A stretch of 64,000 nucleotides of DNA from Clostridia bacterium (GCA_017934475.1 JAGBJN010000004.1:1783-65782); one strand, 5' to 3'. Numbered from the stretch's first letter, positions 8,342 to 50,511 are shown. The notes: generated from the letters alone by a model not told the origin. A program made the numbers and translations.

Positions 8342-8342
8342 A

Positions 8343-17300: not shown

Positions 17301-18575
17301 ATAAGCACTTAATAAAGTATTTCCATCAAAATATCTATCTGTTATTCCCCAAGTAAGTGGATTTCTTTCTATGGTAGCATATGTATTTTCATGGAATTTT
17401 ACCTCTTTTGTTACAACTCCTATTGGCTTATCTCCACCTCTATCCATCATTATAATTACGCCTAAATTTCTTTGTGTTTCTGATGAAATAGGGTTTGTAT
17501 AATTTGGATTATTATATCCTGTATATGATGTATGTACTTCAAATAAAAATTCTGCTTTAGCATCTTCAAGTATCTCTCCATTTTGGTAAAAACATTGTTT
17601 AAAAGCCTCTAATGGATATTTAATATCAAAGGCATATCTATTTCTATTTGAAACAGAATAATTATTATCATTATAAGATATCGTAATAGTTTTTGTTTCT
17701 TCATCATAAGTTCCTACTGTTGGTCTTACCCATTCTGGTTCATATCCATTTAAGTTTGGTATTTTTATTGTTGTAGATGTACTTTTTATAGGTAATACTC
17801 CTACTCTATCTCCTGTTTTAACCTCCACAGTAAATGGAGCAGCTGCATATTCTGGTAATGTGTCTACACCATAACTTGGACTCGCATATTCTTCATCTGT
17901 TTGAGTTATATATCTTGTTCTAACATCAGATGGTGCGTCTATATATGCTTCCAAACTACCATACCAATCAACCTTTAAGTCAATTTCTTTGTTAATAGGT
18001 GTTCTTGTTTCACCATCTGATGATACATGAGTACCTGTCAATGTTATTTTAGAATTTTTAGAGAAATAATCTTTATTTAAAATTTTTGCTGTAATTGAAG
18101 ATAATATTAATCTTTGTGTACCAGCATTAACATTGTCCAAAAGTATTTCTTTTCCATCTTCTATATTAATGTAGTTTTGTGCAAAGAAACCATCTTTTAT
18201 AAAATTATCAAATCTAACTTTATAGTTATTTCCTTCACTTATAGTTATTTTTCCATCTTCTAATGTTCCATCACTTACTACATTAAGTTCCATGTATAGG
18301 ACATCTTGGCCGGCAACGTTCATTGTCGTTCCTGCTAGCTTATCTGCTATTCCATCTCTATTTAAATCTCTTAAGAAATAAGCTAAGAATTCAACATTGT
18401 CGCAACCCTCAACCTTCTTATCCTCATCTGTGAATTGTTTGTATGTCATTGCTAATCTGTCTTCTTGAGACATTGTTAGTTTTTGTACATTTGGTATTAA
18501 TATACTTGCAACTAATGCAACTAAAACTAGTAATGCAACTCCAATCCATAAAATTTTGTTTCTTAAAGTACCCAT
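8343..18575 (-). CDS. Giant sortase-anchored adhesin-like protein, paralog 2 (3410 aa from the preferred start)
   Basis: The track ORF is 8343..18662; I prefer ATG 18575 (MGTLRNKILWIG...) with RBS AAGGAG 6 nt upstream. The order is an N-terminal TM segment, Cna-B/SpaA-like modules (e.g. TKTDSETGELLPNAKFVIYELDNDG...DGKYRIDEVQAPDGY), about 19 GLUG-like rungs, and MucBP-like modules (VIVHHY..., VLVHHT..., VRAIYVD...). The C-terminus is IPQTG plus a hydrophobic stretch plus KMKK. Confidence 0.9.
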   Translation of the reverse strand: MGTLRNKILWIGVALLVLVALVASILIPNVQKLTMSQEDRLAMTYKQFTDEDKKVEGCDNVEFLAYFLRDLNRDGIADKLAGTTMNVAGQDVLYMELNVVSDGTLEDGKITISEGNNYKVRFDNFIKDGFFAQNYINIEDGKEILLDNVNAGTQRLILSSITAKILNKDYFSKNSKITLTGTHVSSDGETRTPINKEIDLKVDWYGSLEAYIDAPSDVRTRYITQTDEEYASPSYGVDTLPEYAAAPFTVEVKTGDRVGVLPIKSTSTTIKIPNLNGYEPEWVRPTVGTYDEETKTITISYNDNNYSVSNRNRYAFDIKYPLEAFKQCFYQNGEILEDAKAEFLFEVHTSYTGYNNPNYTNPISSETQRNLGVIIMMDRGGDKPIGVVTKEVKFHENTYATIERNPLTWGITDRYFDGNTLLSAYDNEDQKYYYYVVDYNVVNGTDEDTSIVMYNLQQDRIGSYGLDLYESNCFIYTNSESLKYALGEEGKIDIYGIEYVNEMPYTTYHSLENAQYQHAAELEYKMRGPFGLTRNSDYTKIYLDDVFGKSFVDRIFNEISNSEWDHIITGETFGNIENGDPSPTWIKIETTPMKAHTALNVHVVKRLDMDLVRRAFTRQQIEDAGTIRTYLDQDKGDSVQLAFSKSEAKISWDSNKAFETQQENDPTLNRSFTIGTTYRNAILHSKWQNGAFVVELPSEFVKVDVKDVTMNNGEVVAWSLLKDKTTKKQYIKILTENAEPTAYESINVNLDIVPDARSRSTNSQLKLYYFNEYNNKYYNVNTDIYDTNNNGSKEDTVGFATCNTPISASETLITVQTVLNYDDDGSITVAPNIAELSKETRSADIDISVVNNYKQNVTGTKILGRVPYEGNKYVLRDRELGSVFTAAMTGPIVVPEDLQENTTIYYSAVGEPGKDIENAENGWKTADQITDWSTIKSYLIDFSSVTLRTGIQYEFTYPVTIPEGLNYNDTSYATHAVEYDYNSPYGIVHLETEPTKVGLKITRLYDLTGLKLKEGFDLSVKGAIYQIAEKNVIGDLEQKKLFISGNDGAFNVQNLYVNAVYQVKEVKAPNDYLLSDKKVEFKVVENNDGSLGFEYVTDNHFRTQRLTKDTEDNDLLYIEIENEPKYQINITYIDVNTNEPMYSVVTKLGEDIKATDANGLVSYGRLLPGTEYTLEEVQVKGNIRENYDFILERDGETYTATLDEGMRLESIVNNEENHLIQVNVIVEKESNPVYTLEVVKVEKDASKKDLASMKKIPGAVFSLERVDDNELEDNLVTDENGVAVARALYQYVPGVPISGEYILKEIEAPDGYIENTEEIKFVTTKINDELKVEIENRDSLTSIKDVIIEENKVTLVIQDIAYFKLTKTDSETGELLPNAKFVIYELDNDGNIIDCGKDVYGNYVGEQDEGAPEDSPYYVYTNEAGVITLPLRDGKYRIDEVQAPDGYTGEGSQTFELNNHREVVNEAPYELNEIEIEDNYVEPVRENTVQIQYVEDLLAIDNEMIDNDNTYADTKFVLANDIDFSDEESYRDATSTTYGDINEDGEVSDIKTELTTGNGFKSIGLYFYTEEWDYNDQHYSRTESKFKPFSGTFDGNGHEIKNINQSGREYAGLFAMLKNAVVKNLTISGTIVTGGSDYSLAAGSIAAKAVNSISLENCNNEASVNSNYAGGLIGNVDGYALSSEETNALTQSDILKIKNCKNSGTIDGINAGGIVGRFNNSSSSIKMYESIFIEDCKNTGTINVKSGYNNYSGGIIGDFNDYTVKNLQVINCSNTANTFGGIMGNIYSEGGLQKVKFKNIKNTGNVTFLIGKNMYMYNCEGTVQFIDCYNNGETGVFMDQLYGYSGDKKINVVFYNCINKGSSVYSSGYTGGLVGLYSVDSDYIHIINCGNEGNIGPSMDCGGLIGLFIGNNNADDILIYNSYNTGNIQGTQFTAGLIGASEIRNPNLDFRNCYNTGKISGSGTMAGIVGYVHLNRSESFKNCYNEGEIEGTYSLGGIIGYASDAHLVQIENCYNKGYIHTTEETSCYYMGGIAGFFVSGTAEGSYVKDSYNLGNITKYGTQAGGLGGIIGWGPFELIDNCYNKGNITSYEASENGVGGIIGYTWQSGSFRKVISNCTNYGKINLKQSYTAGIVGYGYGINEINNCFNYGNITMLGGTNGYMCGIDAYAADNVEIKNCFNKGNMLADRGSYAAGITAYCYSGRVECCYNTGDVIFLKPDDSQYGGYCKSAGIIAQSSGTKVVNVYNEGKIVGSGQCGGIVGYISGQESIVNAYNTGDVISTLSDSLVKNANRIGAITAYPSRTDYIYNPDTDNYDEVKVYDVLKNTYYSNDILVDSSSVDVNDTAVDYDYMTTVEFYNKLNVDGVWYLRKNLPPTLMMKTPVYGEATELEVTNDKNDYIIATRVIGDENGGTISGQDVAIYETVEAGENNEKTIEVEVAENYTLLNMSINNKKIDFASKMVDDKVVLEAGYFNDMDEDKLVAVTFAKNPVEIEKVDEDTGESLAGAKLHIKNYDTAWAEDANQNAFGELTACEGSTYYFVKNSNGEYVSNNQYRKGTCANSYIPIDLRDYKGVYTLKVGYYVRADYADYGYLTIREDTVAPTHSDVVGRFAHDYNHTSSYGATTSLEGGKVYYLHMGYFKSQYSSNRYDDCMKVTSLQLTIDAGNNIDQEIEVGENGKFVVDIPTDVLFIQEVEAPMGYQLDDTVHEYDLTQSRQIRFTNKVDDTQQPVIVHHYLINNGVKTTNKVAEDETLRGLIGKEYSTSPKKLEGLTVNADEFPENAVGVFSNEIIEVNYYYDIDNIDLTIHHYKEGTTTAIVPDEVVTTTPSIVVENNSYTLSLNQEYVIKNNEKYNTLINGNYKFVDVFSDAEEALTISKTLHYSANAQLTYTYEDKIYDIKTQVNTHIETVTDSETGETTQVRVAGGTISGQDLPVYEQVLPGEDATKDIVITADDGYTINNVKIISTDDDGVETAKVLYGEEAEECEVTYTGDERGITLTTFEDVHAHKTVSVTFAPIPKDAMVLVHHTIEGKGEDYQTVIIEGIVGDEYRTEAITIPGYKLKATPLNATGRMTEATIDVYYIYEPKDCKIIIKYIDIYSEEEIDREELDGKYDEEIDIRDYSKEIDGYTLRERPEETRVKYAEEEQVYTYKYARNMQVRAIYVDPEGNKVAEDVVISGYEGKAYETEAKDVDGYELVEVPSNASGTMRIGEDGNTEIVVRYEYKKIEVPIPDTKVVEKYVDINSGEVVESYDHNGKVGDKYDIAPRKVEGYVLIQKDKDGNSIMPKNERGIMTEEVIEVVYYVAKDAKVKAKYVVKYGGKDIADEEEIPGYEGKEYSVDPKDIDGYELIEIDGNPEGTMKPGENVVTFYYAKKATGIIPQTGINVFLYAMFAIAIIVVANGTLFIVYKMKK
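8433..8447 (-). other. IPQTG cell-wall sorting motif of paralog 2
   Basis: The motif is followed by INVFLYAMFAIAIIVVANGTLFIVY and a KMKK tail, the classic tripartite sortase signal. Confidence 0.8.
11650..13790 (-). repeat. Coding array of ~19 GLUG-like beta-helix rungs (approximate bounds)
   Basis: Rungs follow the pattern N-C-x-N-x-G-x-I ... [AG]GG[IL][IV]G, for example RNCYNTGKISGSGTMAGIVGYV and KNCYNEGEIEGTYSLGGIIGYA. Confidence 0.6.
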
Positions 18576-18830
18576 CTTTTTTATCTCCTTCTTTTGCAGT
18601 TGAAATTTAATTTTTTCCTTTCCTTTATCAACCGCTATTTGTTTATACTCAAAATTTAGCATATATATAATAAAAAAAACAAGTTCATATATGTTGGAAA
18701 TAAAGGATAATATTTAATATGTACTTGCGGATATTTATTTTTAATATTAAACTTTACATTTTACTAACAATTTCATTATTTTGTTACAAAAAACTACTTT
18801 TTTAGAAATATTATTGTAATTTTTTCTTTT
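18576..18830 (-). promoter_or_regulatory. Conserved upstream leader/promoter region of giant adhesin gene, copy 2
   Basis: It has the same conserved blocks as 7872..8105. Confidence 0.4.
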
Positions 18831-26513: not shown

Positions 26514-26957
26514 TTAGCTATTTACTTCTACTTTTAGTTTTCCAATTACACCTTCAAATAGTTTTATTTCAACATTAAATGTTCCAACATTTTTTATAGT
26601 ATCTTTTAATAATATTTTCTTTTTATCTATATCAATATTATATTGGTTTTTTAAATTTTCTGATATTTCTTTTGCTGTTACACCACCAAATATCTTACCA
26701 TTTTCTCCTGCCTTAACTTTTATTTTTAATGATAATTCATTTAATTTATTTGCTAATGCTTTAGCATCTTCTCTTTCATTATTTCTTTTAAATTCTTGTG
26801 AATTTTGTTTTGCTTTTAATTTCGACATATTCTCTGCATTTGCTTCAACTGCTAATTTCTTTGGAAATAAATAATTTCTAGCATATCCATCACTTGCATT
26901 TATTACTTCATCCTTTTTTCCTACACCTTTTATATTATCTAATAAAATCACTTTCAT
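26514..26957 (-). CDS. rplI: 50S ribosomal protein L9
   Basis: It begins MKVILLDNIKGVGKKDEVINASDGYARNYLFPKKLA, is 147 aa, and has RBS AAAGGAGG. Confidence 0.95.
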   Translation of the reverse strand: MKVILLDNIKGVGKKDEVINASDGYARNYLFPKKLAVEANAENMSKLKAKQNSQEFKRNNEREDAKALANKLNELSLKIKVKAGENGKIFGGVTAKEISENLKNQYNIDIDKKKILLKDTIKNVGTFNVEIKLFEGVIGKLKVEVNS

Positions 26958-27021: not shown

Positions 27022-27059
27022 CAAAAAAGATAGTATAAACTTTCGTTCATACTATCTTC
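27022..27059 (-). terminator. Terminator downstream of the 549-aa dockerin protein gene
   Basis: On the minus strand it reads AAGATAGTAT-13 nt-ATACTATCTT followed by TTTTT. Confidence 0.7.
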
Positions 27060-27064
27060 TTCTA

Positions 27065-28714
27065 TTACTCAAATGTTTCCCAATAAATATTATCTGTATC
27101 ATATGATAAAGAATTTAATTCTACATCACCATCATATATTTTATTTATGCCATTTAAATTTATAGCTTCTCTTGAATATTTAGGGCCATTTGTATTGCTT
27201 ACAGAAATATTAGCATATTCTGCTGGCATATAAAAATCTATTTTTCTTCTTCTTGAATAATCTGTTATATTATTAGCATCTTTTACTCCATATATTGCAC
27301 CACCGCTTCGTAACCAAAATACATCGTTACTTGTATTTACAGATATTTTTTCACCTGTTCTAACAATTGTATTTATGCTTTTTTCGTAATAGTAGTAAAC
27401 TCTAAATTCGTAATGATATTTTCCTCCACTTTGGCTACTATTGCACTCTACTTTGCATCCATTGGCTTGTGCTCCTGTTAAATCATATTCTTTTCCTTCT
27501 GCTGTAATAACTAACCAATTTGGATCAAAAGCATCATTTTTAGTTGCACTTTCATTTGAATTCCCACTATTATTTATTCTTTGATATAATTCTTCAATTT
27601 CTACAGGAGAAATATTATTTGCTCCTGAAATTTTATTTGAAATTAAAAAGTAGTATTCAATTACATCTACATATCCCATTTGAGCAACAAATTTATATTC
27701 TTTTTGATGCTTAGGTTTATATCCTGTAATTGCTCTTAAATTATTATTAACTTCATATCTACCGGTATCAAATCCATTAGATACAGTCATCTCAATATCT
27801 TCACTTGGCATTTCAAATGATATACCATAACCATCTTCTAATTTTGAACCATAATACATCCAACTTGTTTCTGAAGATAAATTATCAGTTCTTAAACTTA
27901 TTTTTGTACCTGGTTCTATATAAAATGTTTTTACCTTTTTTAGTCCTGTAAGTGTTAGTGAATCACTTTGCTTTATTTCTGTTCTTTCTGCATCTGTTAA
28001 ATCATATTCAGTATTATTAATTATTACTTTAGTATTTCCTATATCACTGCTTGTTTCTGTTGGCGTATAATCATTACCTGGAGTTTTATATCCACCATCA
28101 TAACCAATTATAGTAAATGTAAATTCATAAGTTCCTTCTGGTCTATTATTTTCATTTTCAGTTTTCAAATATTCTATATCTTCTGTAACAATATATCTAA
28201 TTAATTTTGTTAAATCAATTGTATTAATCTCTGTATCATTATTTATATCTGCTGATTTAAGTTCTTCAGGTTCTGTTAAAATACAATTTTCTAATCCAAT
28301 ATAATGTCTTATAAGTAAGCTTAAATCTCTTTGGTCTGATATTCCATCACCATTAATATCTCCAATAACAGACAAAACATATGGCTCAGCAGCTGACATC
28401 ATAGCATCGCCTGAAGTTATTGTTTGCTTAAATTCTGCATAATCTCCTGTATAAACAATTTCATTTGTTTTTTCAATTGTAAAATGTTTGTCACGAACTA
28501 TTTTTTTTGTTGTCCCACCATCTGTTATTGAAAATGCATTTAAAAAATCATTTGCTGATGTTCCAGGTAGTATTCTAGAAATCATGTGGTTTTCCTTATC
28601 AAGTGTATATTTAGTATTTTCAATTGTAAGTGCATTGCATATTGAAGAGGTTAATAAAACAAAAACTAAAATGAAAAATAATATTAAACTAAATTTTAAT
28701 AATTTGTTTTTCAA
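27065..28714 (-). CDS. Secreted dockerin-bearing protein with an internally duplicated C-terminal region (function unknown)
   Basis: It has a TTG start with RBS AGGAGGG and a signal peptide ending ICNA. A dockerin follows (GDINGDGISDQRDLSLLIRHYIG ... ADINNDTEINTIDLTKLIRYIV). The rest is two related ~170-aa halves (...TFYIEPGTKISLRTDN...FEMPSEDIEMTVSN / ...NTIVRTGEKISVNTSN...FYMPAEYANISVSN). Confidence 0.75.
   Translation of the reverse strand: MKNKLLKFSLILFFILVFVLLTSSICNALTIENTKYTLDKENHMISRILPGTSANDFLNAFSITDGGTTKKIVRDKHFTIEKTNEIVYTGDYAEFKQTITSGDAMMSAAEPYVLSVIGDINGDGISDQRDLSLLIRHYIGLENCILTEPEELKSADINNDTEINTIDLTKLIRYIVTEDIEYLKTENENNRPEGTYEFTFTIIGYDGGYKTPGNDYTPTETSSDIGNTKVIINNTEYDLTDAERTEIKQSDSLTLTGLKKVKTFYIEPGTKISLRTDNLSSETSWMYYGSKLEDGYGISFEMPSEDIEMTVSNGFDTGRYEVNNNLRAITGYKPKHQKEYKFVAQMGYVDVIEYYFLISNKISGANNISPVEIEELYQRINNSGNSNESATKNDAFDPNWLVITAEGKEYDLTGAQANGCKVECNSSQSGGKYHYEFRVYYYYEKSINTIVRTGEKISVNTSNDVFWLRSGGAIYGVKDANNITDYSRRRKIDFYMPAEYANISVSNTNGPKYSREAINLNGINKIYDGDVELNSLSYDTDNIYWETFE
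28187..28369 (-). other. Dockerin module (two EF-hand-like Ca-binding segments)
   Basis: Both loops fit D-x-N-x-D-x(6)-D followed by a helix (LIRHYIG / LIRYIV). Confidence 0.75.
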
Positions 28715-28766
28715 TTAATTCCCTCCTTTCAGTTTTATAAATAAAAACTATTTTTACAAAATATAT

Positions 28767-28799
28767 AACATATATGGAAAAATTTTTTCCATATATGTT
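28767..28799 (-). terminator. Palindromic hairpin downstream of the 683-aa cohesin protein gene
   Basis: It is an AACATATATGGAAAAA / TTTTTCCATATATGTT inverted repeat. Confidence 0.5.
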
Positions 28800-28819
28800 A
28801 ATATTTATTTTTTATACTT

Positions 28820-30871
28820 TTATATTCTGTTTTTTCTGTATCCTATAAAAGCTCCTACTGCAGATATAGTTAAACCACCAAATATTGCAACTAATATCAT
28901 TTCATTTGTACCAGTTTGTGGTATTTCTTTGTCTGCCTCTTTCTTTCCATCATCTTTTCCGCCGTCTTTTCCATCTTCTGCTGCATCAACAAAATCAGCC
29001 CATTTGAAATCTTCTGCTCCATAGAACATTAATGACCAACTACCTTCTGTAAGTGTTGGATATGCTTTTGATAAAGCAAATGTAACAGCCTCTTGATTTA
29101 TATATTTACCATTTTCATCATCAGCTTTTACATATAAGAAATAATATGATCCATCATCTATTTTTGATAAGTCAATAACTGATTTTCCATCAGCCGTATT
29201 ATAAGATATAGTATATACATCTTGGCTAGCACTAGTTGTTTGATCATAAATTCCACTATTAGATTTAGCATATTTTAATAAATCTGCAAATCCTGAAGAA
29301 TCTTGATTTTTAATCTTTTTCAAAATAGAATAATCTGTTATTTTGCCAACTTTTATTTCAATATTTCTATTTGCATTTGAGTTATGTGTAAATGTTGTAA
29401 CGATTTGTGTTGCTTTATTAGACATAAATGTAGCAAAAAAGCCATCACTATATTTTGGTTCTGAATATTTTGTTAGTTTATTTCCATATGTAACATATTT
29501 TTCTTCACTATTTTCTGTTTGTTCAAGTATAGAAATGTATACGTCTTGATTTAACTCTACAAATTTAGCAATTTCATTGTAGTCTTTGCAAACAAATATA
29601 CCTTTCTCACTATTATACTCAAGTTTCCAATAATTTGCACTTAATTCTGTAGCTGAAGCAGTTGGCATATTACTATTATTAGAAACCATATAATAATAAT
29701 TATGATCTTCTTTAGGTGTTACTCCAGAAATTTCAATACTAGCTTGTGATGTTCCAAATTTTTTCAATTCATATTTTGCACTTGAAAAATCTGTCCAATC
29801 TCCCTCAGGTAAATTTGGATCATCTGGATTGTTTGGATCATCTGGATCATCTGAATCTTTTGGATATACAGTTACCTGACAAGTTGCTGTTGCTGATTCT
29901 CCTCTTGCTGTTATTGTTGTTGTTCCTACACTTACTCCTGTTACAACACCTGTACTACTAACTGTTGCGATACTTGAATTACTACTTGTCCATGTTATTG
30001 TTGCACCCTTTGATGATGTTGCAGCTAGTCCTATAGTTTCACCTACTTTTACTGATGCAGTAGTTTTAACCATATTTATTGTTTCATCAGATACACCTGG
30101 ATCAACCTTTGGAAGAACAGTTACTGTGCATGTTGCTGATTTAGATTCACCTGTAGCTGTTATAACAGCAGTTCCTGCACTTTTACCTACTACAAGTCCT
30201 GAACTATTAACTGTAGCTACAGAAGTATTACTACTTGTCCATGTTATTGTTGCATTTTTTGAAGATTCTGCTCTTAATTGTACTGTTTCATTTACATTTA
30301 TTGATGCTGATGTAGGTGTAACTGTTACAGTTTCTTCTGTTGGTGTAGATCCTCCTTCAAAAGTATATGATATTGATTTATCTGTTTCATCAATTAATTC
30401 ATTTCCAACGCATCCTTGAATACCTCTAATCTTGAATGGTTTAGCATTTGCTTTTACTGAATCAGATAAATTAGATTTTACAGTAAAAGTAACAACACCG
30501 ATTACTTTATCTGTTGTAACTCCTCCTGCCATAGTAGATAATAACATATGTCCTTCACTTTCATTGCCTTCTTCTTTGTTGATTTCTATTGACCAGTTGC
30601 CTCTTCCTTCTACGTCATCGTCAGTAAGATGTTCAAATACATTTTTATCATATTCTAGATAAGCTTCTAATGTATTCATTCCAAGTTCACCCATATCGAT
30701 GTTCATTAATTTAAATTGAAGTTCAACAGTATCACCTTCAGAAATTACAGAATTTGATGGTGATTTAATTGATACATCTAAATTAAAACTATAAGCTTTT
30801 ACACAACATGGTATAATAAAAGTTAATACCAAAGTTGTAATTAATAAGATTGAAATAAATTTTTTCATCAT
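28820..30871 (-). CDS. Sortase-anchored surface protein: cohesin-like domain, two Big_2 Ig-like domains, Pro/Asp linker, ~280-aa unknown domain, IPQTG anchor
   Basis: It has a signal peptide ending CVKA and a cohesin-like domain at ~30356..30793 that aligns with the other two cohesins. Two Big_2 repeats follow (...ITWTSSN.S.ATV...G.V.G.S.GT..ITA.GES..A.C.VTV) at ~29867..30331, then the linker DSDDPDDPNNPDDPN. The C-terminus is IPQTG (28910..28924) plus a TM segment plus RKNRI. Confidence 0.7.
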   Translation of the reverse strand: MMKKFISILLITTLVLTFIIPCCVKAYSFNLDVSIKSPSNSVISEGDTVELQFKLMNIDMGELGMNTLEAYLEYDKNVFEHLTDDDVEGRGNWSIEINKEEGNESEGHMLLSTMAGGVTTDKVIGVVTFTVKSNLSDSVKANAKPFKIRGIQGCVGNELIDETDKSISYTFEGGSTPTEETVTVTPTSASINVNETVQLRAESSKNATITWTSSNTSVATVNSSGLVVGKSAGTAVITATGESKSATCTVTVLPKVDPGVSDETINMVKTTASVKVGETIGLAATSSKGATITWTSSNSSIATVSSTGVVTGVSVGTTTITARGESATATCQVTVYPKDSDDPDDPNNPDDPNLPEGDWTDFSSAKYELKKFGTSQASIEISGVTPKEDHNYYYMVSNNSNMPTASATELSANYWKLEYNSEKGIFVCKDYNEIAKFVELNQDVYISILEQTENSEEKYVTYGNKLTKYSEPKYSDGFFATFMSNKATQIVTTFTHNSNANRNIEIKVGKITDYSILKKIKNQDSSGFADLLKYAKSNSGIYDQTTSASQDVYTISYNTADGKSVIDLSKIDDGSYYFLYVKADDENGKYINQEAVTFALSKAYPTLTEGSWSLMFYGAEDFKWADFVDAAEDGKDGGKDDGKKEADKEIPQTGTNEMILVAIFGGLTISAVGAFIGYRKNRI

Positions 30872-30972
30872 TTTCTTTTTCTCCTTTTCTCTTGTTTTTA
30901 TATATTTTTACTTTTGTTTTTCAGTATTTTATACACCTTATCATTAAAAAACTGAAACACATAATATAATAA

Positions 30973-31686
30973 CTATTTAATAATTATTTTTTTATAGCGT
31001 ACATATGTATATATTCCTATTACACTAATAGTACCTACTATAAATAATAATATAACTTCATTTGTACCAGTTTGTGGTACACTACCTTCTGCAACTGTTT
31101 TATCATTTGTTTTATTTTCATTAACTTGAGGCTCTTGATTATTAATGTCAACCTGTTTCACTTCACTTGCTTCCACAACTTTATCAAATTGTAATGTTAA
31201 TGGAATATTTTTATCGACCTCATTTATTATTGCTGTACCATTATTTGTAGAAACATTTACCAATTTAACCTCTGTTTGCTTAGTTAATGTCGTACTAGTA
31301 AGATCATCTTTAACCCTTAACTTTACGCCTCCAATTTCCTGGTCATTTTTAACTCCAGCTGATAAAATCATTGCAAGCATTTTGCCTTTTTGAATTGTAT
31401 TCTCATCATTATATGTTAAAGACCAATTATTTTTACTACTGACATCATCCTGGCTAACTTTTTCAAATACTGATTCATCATATTGCAATTTAGCTTCAAG
31501 TGCGTTTATTCCATTAGTTCCAGCATTTATATCTGAAATTTTAAGTGTAATTTCAACTTCATCTCCTGGCTTTAAAGATGATTTATCAGGAGTTGCTGTT
31601 AATGTAAAACTATCAGCTAAAACAATTGTTGAAAAACATAATAACATTATACAGAGAACTACAAGTATCCCTAGCTTTTTTTTCAT
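30973..31686 (-). CDS. Sortase-anchored single-cohesin surface protein
   Basis: I prefer the start MKKKLG at 31686 (RBS GGAAGGAA) over the track start 31710. It has a signal peptide ending IVLA and a cohesin-like domain at ~31186..31614. The C-terminus is VPQTG (31066..31080) plus a TM segment plus RYKK. Confidence 0.7.
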   Translation of the reverse strand: MKKKLGILVVLCIMLLCFSTIVLADSFTLTATPDKSSLKPGDEVEITLKISDINAGTNGINALEAKLQYDESVFEKVSQDDVSSKNNWSLTYNDENTIQKGKMLAMILSAGVKNDQEIGGVKLRVKDDLTSTTLTKQTEVKLVNVSTNNGTAIINEVDKNIPLTLQFDKVVEASEVKQVDINNQEPQVNENKTNDKTVAEGSVPQTGTNEVILLFIVGTISVIGIYTYVRYKKIIIK

Positions 31687-31718
31687 TTGTTCCTTCCTTT
31701 CTATAGTCATTTAATCAT

Positions 31719-31747
31719 ATTTTAAAATATATAAACTTAAATTTCAA
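31719..31747 (-). promoter_or_regulatory. Sigma-A-type promoter for the 245-aa cohesin gene
   Basis: It reads TTGAAA-17 nt-TAAAAT on the minus strand. Confidence 0.5.
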
Positions 31748-31810
31748 CAGTTGTAACGGTAATATAATATAAATGTATAAATAAAAATATTTTTGTAATA
31801 TTTTTGTAAT

Positions 31811-31846
31811 ATAAAAAAGATTTTGCAATATTTTGCAAAATCTTTT
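31811..31846 (-). terminator. Terminator downstream of the 1079-aa dockerin/Big_2 gene
   Basis: A perfect 14-bp stem, AAAAGATTTTGCAA / TTGCAAAATCTTTT, is followed on the minus strand by a T-run. Confidence 0.75.
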
Positions 31847-31869
31847 CCTTTATTCCGTAAGGATTTTTA

Positions 31870-34800
31870 TTATTCTATACAAGTTACTACATAACATGTA
31901 CTTGCTCCTGTATACGCATTATCTTCTGGCGTTATAAGTGTAATATGAGAAGTTCCAGGTTCTCTTCCATATAAAGTTATTATACCATTATCTATATGAG
32001 CTTCTACCACATATGCATTATCATTGTGTAGTTCTACTTTATTTCCTGTCTTTTCTACTATATAAAATCTAATTTCCTGTCCAACTCTAATTGTTCCCTC
32101 ATATTCACTTAATCTTATATATCCTTCTCCTTTATTTACTCTTATTTGATATACAGCACTTCCTGAAGTATAATCATCCGTTTCTTCACTACTTACATGA
32201 ATATAAGCCACACCTTGTCCTACTGGAGTTACAGTTATTGTCGAACCACTTACACTTGCTGTTGCAACACCTGTATCAGATGTTTGAACTGTAATTTTAC
32301 CTCCTGTTGGATTTGTTACTTTAAATGTTTTTACATTTGGACATGTAGTTACTCCATAATTTTCTGATAATTCCATTGTATAATCCTCTTGATTCGATAT
32401 ACAAGTAACTGAATAAGTAGCAGATGCCTCTGTATAATAATCATCTTCTTGTGCAGTAACTGTTATTGTTGATGTTCCTGTTTTCATTCCAATAATGGAT
32501 ATTTGGTTATTAAAAATATCAGTGTCTACAACTGCCGAATTCGAATTTTTAATTTTTACACTTGTACCATGCATATTTGTAATATTAAAATAAATCATTT
32601 TCCCAACATTAACTATTCCATTTGTATCACTCAATGTTATAAATCCTGTTCCTTTATCTACTCTTATCGTGTAAGTAGCATTTCCGGCTTTATAATACTC
32701 TGTTTCTGCACTTGATATAGTAATCGTAGTTGTTCCTATTCCTTTTGGTGTTATAGTTATTGTTGACCCACTTACACTAGTTGTTGCTATTTTACTGTTC
32801 GAAGTAACAGCCATAACTCTTCCTCCAGTTGGATTTGTTACCGTAATTGTTTTTGTATTTGGATATTTTATTGTTCCACTTGTTTCTGATAATCTCATTG
32901 TATAATCTTGTTGATTTGATGAATTAGTTATGCATGTAACATTATAAACAGCTGTCGCTTCTGTAAAAGCATTATTTTCAAGTTCTCTTACCGTGATTTT
33001 AGTAGTTCCTACTCCTACTCCTGTTACTGTTACAACATTATTTTCTATTTTCGCTGTTACAACTTTTGTATCAGCAACATCAATTTCTGTTCTATTTCCA
33101 TGTTTACTTGAAATATTAAATGTAATTTTTTTATCTTTTACAACAGTTCCCTCATTTGCACTTAAAGTAATATATCCTACTCCTTTATTTACTGTAATTG
33201 TATATTCTGCAAAACCAGCTTTATATTTGTCTGTCTCTTCACTTGTTACTACTATTGTAGTTGTTCCTTTTCCTACTGGCGTTATCAAAATATTAGATTC
33301 ATTAACACTTGCTGTTGCTATATTCCCATCATAGGATAATGCTGAAATTTTGCCACCAGTTGGATTTGTTACTATAATTGTTTTTGTATTTGGGCATGTT
33401 GTTGTTCCACTTATTTCTGATAATTGCATTGTATAATCTTGTTTGTTTGTTACTGATCCTTCATTTACTGTAATTATATATGTTGCAGTACCCGATTTAT
33501 AATTTGCTGTTGCATCACTTAATACTGTAATTATTGCTGATCCTACGTTTTGTGGTATTACAGTTATTGTTGTACCACTTACCCTTGCTGTCGCTATATT
33601 ACTATTTGATGTTGCTACAGTTATTGTTCCTCCTGTTGGATTCATAATAGTAAATGTTTTTGTATTTGGAATTGATGTTACACCACGTGTTTCTGATAAC
33701 CTCATTGTATAATCTTGTTGATTATTTTGTTGATTTTGACTTGCATTATTAACTTTTATTGTGTAAGTCGCATTTCCAGCTTTATAATTTGTTGTTGCTG
33801 CACTTGACACATTAATTGTCGTTGTTCCTACTCCTTTTGGAATAATCGTTATTGTTGAATCACTAACAACTGTTGTAGCAACATTATTATTTGATGAAAC
33901 TGCCGATATTTTGCCACCAGTTGGATTTGTTACTCTAAAAGTTTTTAAATATGGATAAGTTGTTTCTCCACTTGTTTCTGACAGTTGCATTGTATAGTTT
34001 TGTTGATTTGAAGAATTTTCTATACATGTAACATTATAAACTGCAGTTGCCTCTGTATATGAATCATTTTCAGGTGCTGTAAGTGTAATTTTGGTATTTC
34101 CTGCATTTATTCCAGTTACAGTTACAAGACCATTTGATATTTTTGCATCTGCAACAAGAGCATTATCTATATGTAATTGTGTTTTATTTCCATGCTTACT
34201 TGTAACATTAAATGAAATTGTTTCATCTTTTACAACTACACCTTCCGTAGCACTTAAAGTTATATATCCTATTCCTTTATTTACCATTATAGTATATGTA
34301 GCACTTCCAGCTTTATATTTAGCTGTTTCCTCACTTGTAACTTTTATCGTTGTCGTTCCAGGTGCAATTGGAGTAATAGTTATTGTTGAACCACTTACAC
34401 TTGCTGTTGCTATATTTCCATTTGACGTAATAGCTGAAATCTTACCACCTGTTGGATTTGTTACTGTAAATATTTTTTCATTTGGGCATGTTGTTTCTCC
34501 ACTTGTTTCTGATAAACTCATTGTATAATCTTGTTTTTCTATATTTGGGAAAGTACCATTTAAAATATATCTTATTAAATAAGTAATATCTATTGGATTT
34601 ATAACATCATCATCATAAAAATCAGCAGATTTTAATAAGTAACCATCTGTAATTACGTAATTACTCAATCCTATATAATGTCTAATTAATGCAGATAAAT
34701 CAATAATATTTGTTTCACCGTCTTCACTAATATCTCCTATTACAGAAGCCTTATAAATTCTATCTGCATTCATACTATATCTTCCATCTCCTACATCATT

Positions 34801-35109
34801 AATCGAATGAAGGTTTTTTACAGCAAGCATTCCAGATTTTACAATGCCACTAGATACTTCCTCGTATCCACTTTCTCCAAACTTATATAATTTAATTACA
34901 TCTGTATCAGAAGTTTTTAATTTAGTAGTAATATTCGTAAGAAACTCTGACGCATTAGTTTTTGGTTCTATTCTATAAACAATTTTCGGATTTTTATCAT
35001 CGTCAAATTTATAATTAGAACTTGCAGCATAAATTTCTTTTGTTAATAAATTAGTACATATTATAACAATGGAAAAAAATAGTATAGTTATAAATATTTT
35101 TTTCTTCAT
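31870..35109 (-). CDS. Secreted dockerin-bearing protein with an array of ~10 Ig-like (Big_2-type) domains
   Basis: After a signal peptide comes an N-terminal ~90-aa module related to that of the 549-aa protein, then a dockerin. Six units begin Q(Q)DYTM.LSE.SG...; four of them are followed by a second Ig-like unit (KG.GYITLS...VYNVTCI). Confidence 0.75.
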   Translation of the reverse strand: MKKKIFITILFFSIVIICTNLLTKEIYAASSNYKFDDDKNPKIVYRIEPKTNASEFLTNITTKLKTSDTDVIKLYKFGESGYEEVSSGIVKSGMLAVKNLHSINDVGDGRYSMNADRIYKASVIGDISEDGETNIIDLSALIRHYIGLSNYVITDGYLLKSADFYDDDVINPIDITYLIRYILNGTFPNIEKQDYTMSLSETSGETTCPNEKIFTVTNPTGGKISAITSNGNIATASVSGSTITITPIAPGTTTIKVTSEETAKYKAGSATYTIMVNKGIGYITLSATEGVVVKDETISFNVTSKHGNKTQLHIDNALVADAKISNGLVTVTGINAGNTKITLTAPENDSYTEATAVYNVTCIENSSNQQNYTMQLSETSGETTYPYLKTFRVTNPTGGKISAVSSNNNVATTVVSDSTITIIPKGVGTTTINVSSAATTNYKAGNATYTIKVNNASQNQQNNQQDYTMRLSETRGVTSIPNTKTFTIMNPTGGTITVATSNSNIATARVSGTTITVIPQNVGSAIITVLSDATANYKSGTATYIITVNEGSVTNKQDYTMQLSEISGTTTCPNTKTIIVTNPTGGKISALSYDGNIATASVNESNILITPVGKGTTTIVVTSEETDKYKAGFAEYTITVNKGVGYITLSANEGTVVKDKKITFNISSKHGNRTEIDVADTKVVTAKIENNVVTVTGVGVGTTKITVRELENNAFTEATAVYNVTCITNSSNQQDYTMRLSETSGTIKYPNTKTITVTNPTGGRVMAVTSNSKIATTSVSGSTITITPKGIGTTTITISSAETEYYKAGNATYTIRVDKGTGFITLSDTNGIVNVGKMIYFNITNMHGTSVKIKNSNSAVVDTDIFNNQISIIGMKTGTSTITVTAQEDDYYTEASATYSVTCISNQEDYTMELSENYGVTTCPNVKTFKVTNPTGGKITVQTSDTGVATASVSGSTITVTPVGQGVAYIHVSSEETDDYTSGSAVYQIRVNKGEGYIRLSEYEGTIRVGQEIRFYIVEKTGNKVELHNDNAYVVEAHIDNGIITLYGREPGTSHITLITPEDNAYTGASTCYVVTCIE
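34561..34743 (-). other. Dockerin module
   Basis: The sequence is GDISEDGETNIIDLSALIRHYIG ... ADFYDDDVINPIDITYLIRYIL. The second loop is partly degenerate. Confidence 0.7.
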
Positions 35110-35124
35110 AATTATCTCCTTAAA

Positions 35125-35727
35125 TTATTTACTCTTTTTTCTTAATATTGAAAATCCTCCTAATATTATTGCTATAATTGCAATAATAACTACTACAATA
35201 ACTACTGGATTACTTTCTTTATATTGTACTTCAAGTGGTACAGATATTTTTTTGTCTTGATCAAATACAAGACTTGTACCATTATTAGTTGCAATATCTT
35301 TTATAACAATATCTGTAGCATTAGCAGCTTTTTTCACACTATCTCTTACTTTTAAAGTAATTGTTCCTATTTCTTGTTCTTCTTTAATACCATTGCTTAA
35401 AATCATTCCAACAAACTTTCCTTTTTTCCCAGTTGTTGTATCATTGAAAGTAAAAGTCCAGCCATTTTTCCCACTAAAACTTGATGTTGAAACTGTATCA
35501 AATAAATCTTCATCATATTCCAACACACCTTCAATTGTGTTCATTCCATCATTACCTACACTTATGTTTGAAATATTAAGATCAATCTTTATTTCATCAT
35601 TTTCCTTATAAACCTTTGATTCTGTTCCCTCAACAATTTTAGTTTCTAGACTAAATGAGTCTGCAAATACTACTGTTGGTAGCATTAAAACTATAATTAA
35701 CATTAAAAACAATAATTTTTTCTTCAT
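35125..35727 (-). CDS. Membrane-anchored single-cohesin protein
   Basis: It has a signal peptide ending VVFA and a cohesin-like domain at ~35233..35661. The C-terminal TM segment is PVVIVVVIIAIIAIILGGFSIL plus RKKSK, with no PQTG motif. It lies 15 nt upstream of the 1079-aa gene, so the two are probably co-transcribed. Confidence 0.7.
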   Translation of the reverse strand: MKKKLLFLMLIIVLMLPTVVFADSFSLETKIVEGTESKVYKENDEIKIDLNISNISVGNDGMNTIEGVLEYDEDLFDTVSTSSFSGKNGWTFTFNDTTTGKKGKFVGMILSNGIKEEQEIGTITLKVRDSVKKAANATDIVIKDIATNNGTSLVFDQDKKISVPLEVQYKESNPVVIVVVIIAIIAIILGGFSILRKKSK

Positions 35728-35761: not shown

Positions 35762-35789
35762 ATTATAACATATTATTTCCGTAATGCAA
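35762..35789 (-). promoter_or_regulatory. Sigma-A-type promoter for the cohesin/dockerin gene pair
   Basis: It reads TTGCAT-16 nt-TATAAT with a TGn extension (TGTTATAAT). Confidence 0.55.
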
Positions 35790-35816
35790 ATGGAAAATTT
35801 TAATAAAAAAAAGCAC

Positions 35817-35874: not shown

Positions 35875-36264
35875 TTAAGCTAATTTGCTTTTGAATATTT
35901 TTTGTGTTAATCCTGTTATAACTGGAATATTGTGATCTTTTTCTTGATATGCTTTTACCATTCCCATTATAGCAAATATCATGTAAGTTACATATGCAGC
36001 GAAATTTACTAATCCTAATAGGAAACTGAATATTCCAACTATAATACTTATTACATCATTTCCTGCTACTCCAGAAATTAATCCAAGTATAAAGCTTATA
36101 ATAGAAATTACTATATTAACTACTATAAGTGTTACACTTAAAACTATTGCTTGGCATGCATTTTTGTTAGTTTCTTTAGTATTGTCTTTGAATGCAACTA
36201 ATACTATTAATCCTCCTAGCCATCCAAATAAGTATGAAAGTAATCCTCTAACTTTTTGATCCAT
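35875..36264 (-). CDS. Small integral membrane protein, DUF4870-like
   Basis: It has the N-terminal LSYLFGWLGGLIVLVAFKD motif, 3-4 TM segments and RBS AGGAGG. Confidence 0.6.
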   Translation of the reverse strand: MDQKVRGLLSYLFGWLGGLIVLVAFKDNTKETNKNACQAIVLSVTLIVVNIVISIISFILGLISGVAGNDVISIIVGIFSFLLGLVNFAAYVTYMIFAIMGMVKAYQEKDHNIPVITGLTQKIFKSKLA

Positions 36265-36361: not shown

Positions 36362-38404
36362 TTAATTTGAAATTTCTGCAAAATATTCATTTATTCTTAT
36401 AATTAATTCTGTTCTAACCTCATCCATTGTCATTCCCTCAACCTGTGCACCCGCAAGTGTTATATGACCACCGCCGCCTAATTTTTCAAGAATAATTTGA
36501 ACATTTATATCTCCAATAGATCTACCACTTATACAGATTTTATCTCCAAGTCTTCCAAGGACGAATGATGCAGTTATATCACTTATAGTAAGCAATTCAT
36601 CTGCTGCTTTTGCACAAACAACATTTGCATTTTCATCTTCCTTATCATATATTGAAATTGCAATTGTATCATTTGTTATTTCAGCATCTGAAACTATTTG
36701 TGATATTTTATTATATGTTTCTAAATCACTTTGGAACCATTTTTTTACTTTTATAATGTCAACGCCACATTTTCTCAAATAAGCTGCTGCTTCAAATGTT
36801 CTTACACCTGTTTTAAATGTAAAATTCTTTGTATCCATCATAATTCCAGCATATAAACTTTCTGTTTCAAGTTGTGTAAGTTCAACTTCATTTTCTGAAT
36901 ATTCTATAAGTTCTGTTACAAGTTCACATGCAGATGATGCATAAACTTCATGGAATGTAAGTATTGCATTCTCTATAAAATCCGTGCTTCTTCTATGATG
37001 ATCTATAATAACTATTTTGTTAGTTTTGTCTAATAATTCAGGTACATCCACATAGTTTGTTTTATGAGTATCTGTAATTACAAGTAAGGTTTCAGGTGTT
37101 ATAAGTTCTAATGCTCTGTCTTTACCAATAATTGTTTCACTATATTCTTCATCTTCTTTTGCAAGTTCAATAAATTTTTCAAGTCCAGCATTTGCAGATT
37201 CATTAACTACATATGCCTCTTTTCCATTTACTTTTGCAAGTCTGTATATTCCAAGTCCAGATCCCATTGCATCTATATCACTATTTGTATGTCCCATTAT
37301 TATAACTTTTTCAGCTTCTCTCATTAGTTCTTCTAATGCATGAGCAACAGTTCTAGCCTTAACCTTAGTTCTTTTTTCAACTTCCTGAGTTCTTCCACCA
37401 AAGAATGTATATTTTCCATCTTTTTTAACAATCGCTTGGTCTCCACCTCTACCTAAAGCAATATCAATCATTGCTTGTGCTGTTTTATATTTTTCATAGT
37501 TTGAGTCTCCCTCTGTTGCAACCGCAATTGAAAGTGTAGATTGTAATTGTCCTGGTATATCAATTTCTTTGATTTGATCTAATATTTTAAATTTTTCTTC
37601 TTCTAATACATCAATATATTGTTTCTCAGCAATTAATACAAATGTATCTCTATCACTTTTTATAATTAATCCTTTTATTTCTGAAGCCCAATCATAAATA
37701 GCTTTTTCAAGTTGTGCTATTACTGCTGGCTTATCTTCATCTGCAACTCTTTGTATGATTTCATCATAATTATCTACCATTGCAATACCAACACATAATT
37801 TTGATGATTCGTATTTATTTTCTATTTCAATATTTTCTGTTTCATCAATAAAATATAGTGTTGTCATATATTCCGCTTCTTTTTTCTTATCCTTTTTGTC
37901 TTTACTTTTTGATTTAACATATTCACCATAAATTTTATATTTCTTATCACCAATTTCTATGTGTTTGCATATTAGTTCTTCAAGTTCCTTTTTTACATCA
38001 TCGCTACCATTTTCAAGTTCTAATCTTATTTCTCTTACAATTTCATTTAAATATGTATTTATATCAACATTAGCAAATTCTTGTATAAATTTTGAACTTT
38101 TCCATATAATGTTTCCATCAGTTTCTACTATTACTAGTGGAAATGGTGAATTTATTAATGTACTTTTAGCAGCATTATCAACATTTAAAGTTAATTCTCT
38201 AATATGTTCAGAAAGTTCTGCTCTTCTTTTATTATTTGTCCAAAAAGTGTACATCAAAACTAAAGCATATATTATAATAGCAGGCATTATGAATCTTATT
38301 TCATACACACACAATGCTATTAATAATATTGCTATAATAACTAAATATATCTTCGTTTTAGATATTATTCTATCAAATTTATTTCCATTTAAATTGTTTG
38401 GCAT
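36362..38404 (-). CDS. gdpP: Cyclic-di-AMP phosphodiesterase GdpP (DHH/DHHA1 family)
   Basis: It has two N-terminal TM segments, a central PAS/degenerate-GGDEF-like region, DHH motifs (GHTNSDIDAMGS, IIDHHRR) and the DHHA1 GGGH motif. I prefer the start MPNNLNG at 38404 (RBS AAGGAAG); the track ORF starts at a GTG at 38431. Confidence 0.85.
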   Translation of the reverse strand: MPNNLNGNKFDRIISKTKIYLVIIAILLIALCVYEIRFIMPAIIIYALVLMYTFWTNNKRRAELSEHIRELTLNVDNAAKSTLINSPFPLVIVETDGNIIWKSSKFIQEFANVDINTYLNEIVREIRLELENGSDDVKKELEELICKHIEIGDKKYKIYGEYVKSKSKDKKDKKKEAEYMTTLYFIDETENIEIENKYESSKLCVGIAMVDNYDEIIQRVADEDKPAVIAQLEKAIYDWASEIKGLIIKSDRDTFVLIAEKQYIDVLEEEKFKILDQIKEIDIPGQLQSTLSIAVATEGDSNYEKYKTAQAMIDIALGRGGDQAIVKKDGKYTFFGGRTQEVEKRTKVKARTVAHALEELMREAEKVIIMGHTNSDIDAMGSGLGIYRLAKVNGKEAYVVNESANAGLEKFIELAKEDEEYSETIIGKDRALELITPETLLVITDTHKTNYVDVPELLDKTNKIVIIDHHRRSTDFIENAILTFHEVYASSACELVTELIEYSENEVELTQLETESLYAGIMMDTKNFTFKTGVRTFEAAAYLRKCGVDIIKVKKWFQSDLETYNKISQIVSDAEITNDTIAISIYDKEDENANVVCAKAADELLTISDITASFVLGRLGDKICISGRSIGDINVQIILEKLGGGGHITLAGAQVEGMTMDEVRTELIIRINEYFAEISN

Positions 38405-38534
38405 AAAATCTTCCTTTCTTTTTACAACCACCTTATATTTTACTATTTTTTAGCTATTTTGTCAAATTTCAGTACTCATTAGGGACCTTTTCAAAAAGTA
38501 AATCAATCCATTTTGAGTATAAAGATAACCTTTT

Positions 38535-47717: not shown

Positions 47718-48389
47718 CTAATTCCATATTGCTGGGCGATAAGTTACTCCTGCAGCGCCAGACCCATTTCCAGCTGATCCCCATCCTTCAAATCCTAAGA
47801 TGCTTGCTTTTCTTAAACCTATTTGTGGACCATACTCTACTTTAGCATTATACCATCCTGCAGTTTCTCCATAGGCTTTTCCAACATTTTCAGAAGAGTT
47901 ATATGTGCTTCCAAGTACATCTACATATCTACTATTTGTTTCTTCATATAACTTTGAACAATAATCGTTAGAAGATGTCCCTGTTTTATATGCTGCGACA
48001 AAAGTAGCCCAATCCCCATTGTATGATCCTAAATTAATAACACCACTTGCATTCCCTGTTGTTGTATAATAATTTTTTTCATTAATTGAAGTTGTATCTC
48101 CGGTTGCATTTCTTACTGTTCCATAAGAGCTTAGTCCTAAATAAGCTGTTGCTCCCCAATCACGAGCTGTAGACATATGTGGATCCAAACTATTATCACC
48201 TAAAGTAGAAGTTTGATGTCTCATATCAAGGCAATATTGAAAAGCATTATTTGCAGTTACATTTCCTTGTCTTGTTGTACCTGCTTTTATTTCAATTGCT
48301 GCATATGACTGCCCTGATAAAGTTATACTAAATGCAGTACATAAAACTATCAATAATAAATTAACTTTTATAACTTTTTTTATATTCAT
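47718..48389 (-). CDS. Small secreted protein S1 (223 aa), partner of the pilin-like repeat protein; unknown function
   Basis: I prefer the start MNIKK at 48389 (RBS AAAGGAGAG). The signal peptide ends SYA/AIE. It shares with S2 the motifs NDAFQYC.DMR, LDPH.STARDW.A.AYLGLSSYGTVR, TTGN.SGV.N.G, GETAGWY and the terminal TYRPAIWN. Confidence 0.8.
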   Translation of the reverse strand: MNIKKVIKVNLLLIVLCTAFSITLSGQSYAAIEIKAGTTRQGNVTANNAFQYCLDMRHQTSTLGDNSLDPHMSTARDWGATAYLGLSSYGTVRNATGDTTSINEKNYYTTTGNASGVINLGSYNGDWATFVAAYKTGTSSNDYCSKLYEETNSRYVDVLGSTYNSSENVGKAYGETAGWYNAKVEYGPQIGLRKASILGFEGWGSAGNGSGAAGVTYRPAIWN

Positions 48390-48432
48390 ATTTTTCTCTC
48401 CTTTGTATATCATAAGATTTCAATAATTGGTA

Positions 48433-50421: not shown

Positions 50422-50477
50422 TTGTTCCCCTTTCTCTATTTTCTCTTACGCATACACGCATTTCGTAAACTATAAAA

Positions 50478-50506: not shown

Positions 50507-50511
50507 GTATT

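Follow-up and report, generated by a model that had tools for sequence, protein, structure and literature searches.

A putative non-cellulosomal cohesin–dockerin cluster for surface display in an uncultured gut Clostridium

Cohesin–dockerin pairs are familiar mainly as the modules that hold cellulosomes together. A five-gene cluster at positions 27065-35727 of a 64,000-nucleotide stretch of DNA from a Clostridia bacterium (GCA_017934475.1, JAGBJN010000004.1:1783-65782; this whole stretch of 64 kilobases (kb) is hereafter called the window) probably puts such modules to another use. With a probability of about 0.7, the cluster would encode a non-cellulosomal cohesin–dockerin system that holds proteins at the cell surface, in which three anchored proteins serve as sockets and two secreted proteins as plugs. 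An earlier note on this DNA, made from the sequence alone, had proposed a plug-and-socket system of this kind, and domain profiles, structure, non-catalytic payloads and comparative gene coupling now argue for it.

Five consecutive open reading frames (ORFs), all on the minus strand, fill the interval in which the earlier note had placed a five-gene cluster. They are labelled A to E by rising coordinates:

27065-28714, minus strand: A, 549 residues
28820-30871, minus strand: B, 683 residues
30973-31686, minus strand: C, 237 residues, counted from the second ATG
31870-35109, minus strand: D, 1079 residues
35125-35727, minus strand: E, 200 residues

Independent gene calls on metagenome contigs with an identical locus give the same five products and also choose the second ATG as the start of C. 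All five proteins carry a typical Sec-type signal peptide. The guanine-cytosine (GC) content of the window is about 29%, and the cluster forms a rapidly evolving island of five genes in the low-GC genome of an uncultured gut Clostridium.

Anchored cohesins and N-terminal dockerins

B, C and E each contain exactly one cohesin and differ in how they are anchored:

35662-35727, minus strand: signal peptide of E
35227-35661, minus strand: cohesin of E (residues 23-167)
35143-35208, minus strand: C-terminal transmembrane segment of E, followed by an RKKSK tail
31186-31614, minus strand: cohesin of C (residues 25-167), preceded by the signal peptide
30976-31080, minus strand: VPQTG sorting signal of C, separated from the cohesin by a linker of about 35 residues
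30356-30793, minus strand: cohesin of B (residues 27-172), N-terminal, after the signal peptide
30122-30331 and 29864-30067, minus strand: two Big_2 domains of B (72.1 bits)
28970-29809, minus strand: predicted tandem FN3-like pedestal of B (residues 355-634)
28823-28924, minus strand: IPQTG sorting signal of B

The cohesin of C scores 37.7 bits in the full-length protein and 40.3 bits as an isolated domain, above the Pfam Cohesin (PF00963) cut-off of 24.1 bits. Of the three cohesin-like domains described in the earlier note, C passes this profile on its own; E and B taken alone remain below the cut-off, and their assignment comes from the wider family. The cohesin domains of B, C and E are paralogues (36-40% identical), and that of B is matched by independent orthologues from another contig (E 2e-29). 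A profile built from only the three window domains found no match in the PDB. Among 1.84 billion representative proteins, searched exhaustively with HMMER, 789 cohesin relatives were found at E<=1e-3. When a profile was made from a 92-sequence alignment drawn from these wider relatives, solved cohesins were its sole PDB matches below an E of 0.01, namely 1g1k_A (the CipC cohesin, 4.5e-6), 2vn5_A (5e-6), 1aoh_A (1.3e-4), 5nrk_A, 4dh2_A and 3ul4_A.

The three anchors listed in the earlier note can all be read in the sequence. In B and C, a hydrophobic stretch and then a basic tail come after the sorting motif (IPQTG and VPQTG, respectively); in B these are 23 hydrophobic residues and YRKNRI. B matches Gram_pos_anchor with 24.4 bits (cut-off 20) and TIGR01167 (cut-off 15.9) with 21.5 bits; C scores 15.1 bits with TIGR01167, just under the cut-off. 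Judged by this layout, E would be a membrane-anchored socket and C a wall-proximal, sortase-anchored one, and B would present its cohesin atop a stalk made of two Big_2 domains and the FN3-like pedestal.

The Big_2 domains of B had been recognised in the earlier note, together with a 280-residue domain that was called unknown. The domain is there, but it need no longer be called so. Its AlphaFold2 (AF2) model, computed with a homologue alignment, has a predicted local distance difference test (pLDDT) score of 91.3, and tandem FN3 pairs head the list of its PDB matches (2gee, E 8.6e-6), which also includes RbmA and SiiE. We read it from this model as a tandem FN3-like, wall-proximal pedestal. 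About 45 homologues, 33-57% identical over 280 residues, are nearly all LPXTG proteins of 335-490 residues. These proteins (P0003-P0047, from gut Clostridia, including loci L007-L012) belong to no Pfam family and have variable N-terminal heads, and the family consensus includes VELNQDLY, KITD.SIL.KIK and DDENGKY. Their genes stand alone among housekeeping genes in all three loci examined. They share the pedestal and the LPXTG-type anchor with B but almost all lack a cohesin; the cohesin occurs as the head on a pedestal in B, P0152 and P0190, the latter two of which came from the cohesin search.

The plug proteins A and D begin with the same arrangement of modules:

28631-28714, minus strand: signal peptide of A
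28364-28630, minus strand: N-module of A (residues 29-117)
28184-28363, minus strand: dockerin of A (residues 118-177)
35026-35109, minus strand: signal peptide of D
34738-35025, minus strand: N-module of D (residues 29-124)
34558-34737, minus strand: dockerin of D (residues 125-184)

Both dockerins exceed the Pfam Dockerin_1 (PF00404) cut-off of 22.9 bits, A with 38.9 bits over residues 118-175 and D with 29.8 bits over residues 125-183; their orthologues score 45.7 and 35.7 bits. The matches map to 28184-28363 and 34558-34737, within a few codons of the positions given in the earlier note (28187-28369 and 34561-34743). Each dockerin consists of two segments of about 22 residues, and each segment contains an EF-hand-like Ca-binding loop (D-x-[DNS]-x-D ... 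D at position 12) and a helix, as in type I dockerins. The loops, read directly, are DINGDGISDQRD and DINNDTEINTID in A and DISEDGETNIID and DFYDDDVINPID in D, and the sole deviation is Y at loop position 3 in the second segment of D. The motif LIR(H/Y)(Y/I) recurs in both helices of both dockerins, and the two segments are near-symmetric. Consistently, the dockerin of A finds solved type I dockerins in the PDB by sequence (4fl4_A, E 1.2e-5), and its AF2 model (pLDDT 93-97) superposes on 4fl4, 4dh2 and 2vn6 with template modelling (TM) scores of 0.71-0.83 and root-mean-square deviations of 1.7-2.9 Å over 63-65 columns. No other dockerin is present in the window. Neither A nor D has an anchor of its own or any other retention signal.

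The N-module, about 90 residues long, lies directly N-terminal to the dockerin and is conserved in A, D, their orthologues, five loci from metagenome-assembled genomes (MAGs) and 20 fused proteins. A and D are 39% identical over N-module and dockerin together (E 3e-26), in agreement with the shared N-terminal module described earlier. The model of the N-module of A is of mixed quality (pLDDT 54-93) and has a beta-beta-alpha-beta4 pattern. Its similarity to the solved X-modules 4iu3_B, 4iu2_B and 4wkz_A is weak (E 0.9-1.3, probability 0.16-0.33, TM score 0.26-0.29). The dyad of N-module and dockerin follows the signal peptide immediately and leaves the payload C-terminal, unlike the X-module–dockerin dyads found at C-termini. 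Dockerins at the N-terminus occur occasionally, as in SIGN-Doc-SERPIN.

Behind the dockerins lie the payloads:

31873-34533, minus strand: immunoglobulin (Ig)-like array of D (residues 193-1079), 10 domains in the order a-b-a-a-a-b-a-b-a-b
27698-28135, minus strand: payload copy 1 of A (residues 194-339)
27125-27697, minus strand: payload copy 2 of A (residues 340-530)

The array of D, estimated earlier at about 10 domains, contains six of type a (51-73% identical) and four of type b (43-62%). The repeats are visible also in the DNA and match T2SS-T3SS_pil_N (61.6 bits); those of the orthologue match Big_2. The payload of A consists of two copies of about 150-190 residues each. This duplication, which the earlier note had seen, is weak within A itself (27% identity over 105 residues, E 4e-4) but is corroborated by the same duplication in the orthologue and by a DNA repeat spaced 519 nucleotides. 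The copies of A align convincingly with those of the orthologue, with invariant Y, L, A, T, W, F-x-M-P, S-N and G. A profile of the four repeats has no PDB match, and the payload finds only sub-threshold noise in Pfam (Dicty_CAD 16.6 bits, I-set 15.2 bits). An assignment of its fold by AF2 was rejected because the model, with a pLDDT below 50, is unreliable.

Profiles of glycoside hydrolases, polysaccharide lyases, carbohydrate esterases, proteases and carbohydrate-binding modules (CBMs) match none of the five cluster proteins, nor does that of a multi-cohesin scaffoldin. The earlier note had likewise recognised no glycoside hydrolase, CBM or scaffoldin here, and neither payload matches a known carbohydrate-active module. 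The payloads look like adhesin or coat modules. Dockerin-borne enzymes and a multi-cohesin scaffoldin with a CBM, by which a cellulosome is recognised, are absent from the window. Because the scope is 64 kb, the statement that there are no recognisable enzymes holds for the cluster and not necessarily for the organism.

Genomic position and orthologous clusters

The genes gdpP, rplI and dnaB are normally contiguous in Firmicutes. In the window, this block is split by 9.4 kb, made up of the five-gene cluster and a DUF4870 gene, which lie between gdpP (36362-38431) and rplI/dnaB. GdpP of the window matches the NCBIfam GdpP-L9 fusion model with an E of 1.4e-94, but under the model's own cut-off, and this match fits the usual gdpP-rplI adjacency. 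The following features mark the borders and the gaps of the cluster:

26514-26957: rplI side of the gdpP-rplI-dnaB block
27023-27062, minus strand: terminator-like hairpin directly after A, closing the cluster before rplI
28766-28800, minus strand: terminator-like palindromic hairpin between B and A
31815-31846, found by the scan on the plus strand only, with a palindromic stem: terminator-like hairpin between D and C
35762-35790, minus strand: promoter-like site upstream of E (10/12 consensus matches, TG extension)
35875-36264, minus strand: DUF4870 membrane-protein gene between gdpP and E

The DUF4870 gene keeps its position in relatives and is duplicated in one of them; it is probably a border marker of the island that lies outside the system. 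The start codon of D lies 15 base pairs (bp) past the stop codon of E, and the promoter-like site is a candidate start of a putative E-D transcript. Because the 72 promoter-like sites found in the region are not above the 83.9 expected by chance, the operon structure is tentative. The idea of a mobile element was dropped, since neither direct nor inverted repeats flank the cluster, and an integrase and a GC anomaly are likewise absent.

The cluster is found again on three other metagenome contigs, at gdpP/rplI or beside one of the two. The first (L021) has the order of the window, namely DUF4870 (two copies), E, D, C, B, A and rplI. Identity to the window is 57.5% for E, 51% for D, 48% for C (P0050), 36-47% for B and 29% for A; D has only two Ig-like domains there as against 10 in the window, and B has one Big_2 domain. 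On the second contig (L020), an orthologue of E is followed 22 bp on by an orthologue of D. The third (L022) carries an amidohydrolase gene, gdpP, DUF4870, E and D, and identity to the window drops steadily toward the island, from 97% for RpoC through 88.5% for GdpP, 76% for the amidohydrolase and 60% for DUF4870 to 44% for E and 45% for D. With RpoC at 97% and E and D at about 45%, the island diverges far faster than its flanks. Each E orthologue, with an identity of 44-61%, is encoded immediately upstream of a D orthologue. In L022, the D orthologue (7156-8553) has a Cys-rich extracellular tail with DnaJ-like CxxCxGxG in place of most of the Ig-like array; the tail scores 18.8 bits with PF00684, under the cut-off, and the contig stops inside the gene.

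A word-indexed homologue search returned only A itself and one unrelated triple-dockerin protein for A, and no match for the N-terminal 165 residues of D. The orthologues were reached through the cohesin matches and their contigs, and A is therefore not an orphan, its orthologue being 29% identical.

Distant relatives and fused proteins

Five loci from MAGs of uncultured Clostridia (L013-L017) contain an operon of an N-module–dockerin Ig protein, a secreted protein and a single-cohesin anchor. The Ig protein has a signal peptide and 820-1067 residues, and the cohesin protein has 223-246 residues, one cohesin and an LPXTG-like signal. The secreted protein between the plug and anchor genes (at about 6500-9850, some 1070-1094 residues) belongs to no Pfam family; in L013 and L014 it is read as two ORFs of 190-205 and 885 residues, and its C-terminal motif ..YTFVGYD.AGN..I..I.V also ends an upstream ORF of 1275 residues in L013. 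In a further locus (L019), a leucine-rich repeat (LRR)/coiled-coil protein of 1574 residues with a C-terminal module-dockerin is encoded directly upstream of a cohesin-anchor gene. No catalytic family was matched among the scanned proteins of the related loci, whose payloads are Ig, FN3, LRR or unknown. A metagenome scan with the D-orthologue alignment gave generic C-terminal dockerins without cohesin neighbours, and only one locus (L024) with an N-module.

A census was taken of the 150 best cohesin representatives. At least 60 of them end in a sortase-type [LI]P[QK]TG-like signal (LPQTG 15, IPQTG 14, LPKTG 7, others), 32 end in a transmembrane segment only, and only 5 have more than one cohesin. 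The N-module–dockerin is present in the same protein in 20 of the 150. These fused proteins range from 403 to 5696 residues and have a uniform layout. From the N- to the C-terminus, a cohesin is followed by a degenerate sorting motif (e.g. SPKTGD, VQTGD, NTGD), a first transmembrane segment, a basic loop and a second transmembrane segment that ends in a signal-peptidase-like site; the N-module–dockerin comes next, and then FN3/Ig, List_Bact_rpt or other adhesin-type arrays. This is the expected product of a fusion between an anchor gene and a downstream plug gene, and we take it as Rosetta-stone evidence that cohesin and dockerin belong together. One close cohesin relative from another organism (P0121, 680 residues) is fused not to an anchor but to an ART-PolyVal ADP-ribosyltransferase domain (48.1 bits), which would make it a toxin-like polyvalent protein that bears a cohesin.

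The window as a whole is rich in surface proteins. On the minus strand, 8343-18662 and 1-8258 encode a tandem pair of giant adhesin paralogues with 59% identity over about 2680 residues. The paralogue of 3439 residues has six MucBP and three SpaA domains and an IPQTG anchor, the same motif as in B. The other, of at least 2635 residues, runs off the start of the window, and its last visible 100 residues are 40% identical to a C-terminal module of P0127, one of the fused cohesin–dockerin proteins. At 47718-53264 on the minus strand lies a tandem-duplicated two-gene unit without Pfam matches. Each copy encodes a protein with a prepilin-like N-terminus (MKNNKKGITLVALVITIIILLILAG; 662 and 666 residues, 62% identical) and then a secreted protein of 231 or 226 residues, 43% identical to its counterpart. 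A protein of 504 residues with WG_beta_rep repeats (77.5 bits; 58730-60244, minus strand) is another putative surface or secreted repeat protein.

Proposed mechanism, rival explanations and known systems

In the proposed mechanism, E would be kept in the membrane, and a sortase whose gene lies elsewhere would attach C and B to peptidoglycan. A and D would then be held on the cell through Ca2+-dependent binding of their N-terminal dockerins to at least one of the anchored cohesins. The sockets would thus stand at three heights, at the membrane (E), at the wall (C) and at the tip of a stalk (B). Because the dockerin is N-terminal, the payload would project outward with a free C-terminus, and the N-module, being N-terminal as well, would not sit in the force path. 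The projecting payloads, a 10-domain Ig-like fibre in D and a duplicated domain in A, may serve as adhesin or coat fibres that are subject to diversifying selection. The most likely pairing would include E with D, because their genes are 15 bp apart, four lineages retain the pair and many relatives have a fusion of the two. Near-identical genomes differ strongly in this island, and such hypervariability suggests a surface layer that evolves fast and can be swapped, with a role in adhesion or in escape from phage or host recognition.

Several observations weigh against this mechanism. The cohesin of E scores 20.2 bits, under the Pfam cut-off of 24.1, and full-length B has no match to the profile at E<=0.1; its isolated domain gives a weak match at E<=10. 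The cluster has three sockets and two plugs, and no sortase domain was found among the window ORFs scanned. Gene adjacency and fusion indicate a functional linkage rather than a specific contact between cohesin and dockerin. The identification of the N-module as an X-module is unsupported, as its model has no convincing fold similarity to solved X-module–dockerin structures. The payload of A may have a lectin- or CBM-like role.

The excess of sockets over plugs speaks for the idea that the cluster provides the anchors of a system with enzymes, of the cellulosome or amylosome type, in which the cohesins would mainly hold dockerin-tagged carbohydrate-active enzymes (CAZymes) or proteases encoded elsewhere, and A and D would be accessory proteins like CttA. 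With three sockets for two plugs, the genes of other dockerin proteins, perhaps including enzymes, may lie beyond the 64 kb analysed, whose contig measures at least 551 kb. The cohesins and dockerins are nearest to type I cellulosomal ones, and in Ruminococcus flavefaciens the sortase-anchored single-cohesin protein ScaE binds a scaffoldin as well as the non-catalytic CttA (PMC2930009). Such a system nevertheless appears unlikely, because the window contains no dockerin-bearing enzyme, CBM or multi-cohesin scaffoldin, the scanned proteins of related loci match no catalytic family, more than one cohesin occurs in only 5 of the 150 best cohesin relatives, and the chromosome of one relative is only 1.70 Mb.

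The weak cohesin scores favour a different idea, that of a surface-protein island without cohesin–dockerin pairing, in which the modules are independent structural or Ca-binding parts and A and D are released or otherwise retained. Non-cellulosomal cohesin- and dockerin-like modules often lack an identified partner, as Peer et al. 2009 reportedly found. The same holds in a rumen survey (PMC6487960). We regard an absence of pairing as improbable, given that cohesin and N-module–dockerin genes co-occur repeatedly across lineages and are fused in 20 representatives, that A and D have no other retention signal, and that both dockerins retain full Ca-loop and helix signatures. A third idea goes beyond simple display to a lattice or polymer that assembles itself into a coat of several tiers, with E in the membrane, C in the wall and B on its stalk, in which fused relatives would form head-to-tail chains and an S-layer-like or fibrillar envelope. 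Owing to their anchors and linkers, the cohesins of E, C and B each lie at a different distance from the membrane, the fused proteins bear both partners outside the cell, and the near-symmetric dockerin segments would permit a dual binding mode. However, no window protein has both a cohesin and a dockerin, so that chains would stop at one link here, and a lattice is very unlikely.

The non-cellulosomal cohesin–dockerin anchoring proposed for A to E has relatives among described systems. The closest known one is the anchoring of CttA and ScaB by ScaE in Ruminococcus, where ScaE-CttA and ScaE-ScaB of R. flavefaciens and R. champanellensis (X-module–dockerin with the ScaE cohesin, PDB 4IU3) are encoded by neighbouring genes of the sca cluster (PMC2930009, PMC7456326). 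There, as is proposed for the window, a sortase (LPXTG)-anchored single cohesin holds a non-catalytic adhesin through a dockerin with a conserved module on its N-terminal side. In the window, by contrast, the module and dockerin are N-terminal, directly after the signal peptide, and the payload is C-terminal. In its native loading geometry, the X-module–dockerin of CttA is pulled from its N-terminus (PMC7456326), whereas the pull of the window payloads would reach the dockerin from the C-terminal side and bypass the N-module. In addition, the N-module has no clear fold match to the CttA X-module (4iu3_B, E 0.9, probability 0.33), the payloads are Ig-like or unknown instead of cellulose-binding modules, no scaffoldin or enzyme is encoded nearby, and one socket is anchored by a transmembrane segment.

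ClcC and ClcD of Cellulosilyticum lentocellum, encoded by adjacent cohesin and dockerin genes, form a heterodimer that boosts cellulase activity (PMC13487519). They resemble the cluster as a highly reduced adjacent gene pair, but the window proteins lack a catalytic domain, have their cohesins on three different anchors and carry their dockerins at the N-terminus. Cohesin and dockerin modules outside cellulolytic organisms, on proteins without CAZyme modules, were reportedly described by Peer et al. 2009. That work and the rumen survey have such proteins in common with the window; the modules there are scattered, whereas here they form a syntenic five-gene locus with explicit anchors, a conserved N-module–dockerin and fusion evidence. 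In Clostridium perfringens, toxin/glycosidase complexes are said to be built by cohesin–dockerin pairs (Adams et al. 2008). That organism is likewise said to be a low-GC, non-cellulolytic Clostridium with a non-cellulosomal assembly of secreted proteins, but its modules reportedly sit on large glycoside hydrolases, whereas the window cluster is enzyme-free and has its cohesins on small dedicated anchors. The literature searched contains no description of the window locus, the N-module or the fused proteins. Thus, the general idea is known, and what is new is the architecture (an N-terminal N-module–dockerin, three anchor types and no enzyme), the conserved hypervariable locus and the fusion series.

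The cluster may further belong to a widespread, undescribed class of mini-anchors in uncultured non-cellulolytic gut Clostridia, a possibility that we hold tentatively and at somewhat less than even odds. Hundreds of single-cohesin sockets, anchored by sortase or a transmembrane segment, would accept N-module–dockerin adhesin-like fibres and form a modular, rapidly exchangeable coat. In some lineages, a single precursor would contain both partners, and sortase and signal peptidase would perhaps cut it at the internal sorting signal and the second, signal-peptide-like transmembrane segment to free the partners side by side.

The cluster and its relatives suggest that gut Clostridia with small genomes use cellulosome parts for the non-covalent display of non-enzymatic fibres and not for fibre digestion. 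In the rumen survey, 63.5% of dockerin proteins have no known function, and none of 61 cohesin proteins has an annotated one (PMC6487960). If the proposed system is real, part of the pool of function-less dockerin and cohesin proteins in gut metagenomes would be explained, and the N-module would be defined as a new conserved module that travels with dockerins. Protein engineering and force spectroscopy would gain new orthogonal cohesin–dockerin pairs of reversed geometry. Because it diverges so extremely between genomes that are otherwise near-identical, the island is also a likely target of phage or host selection.

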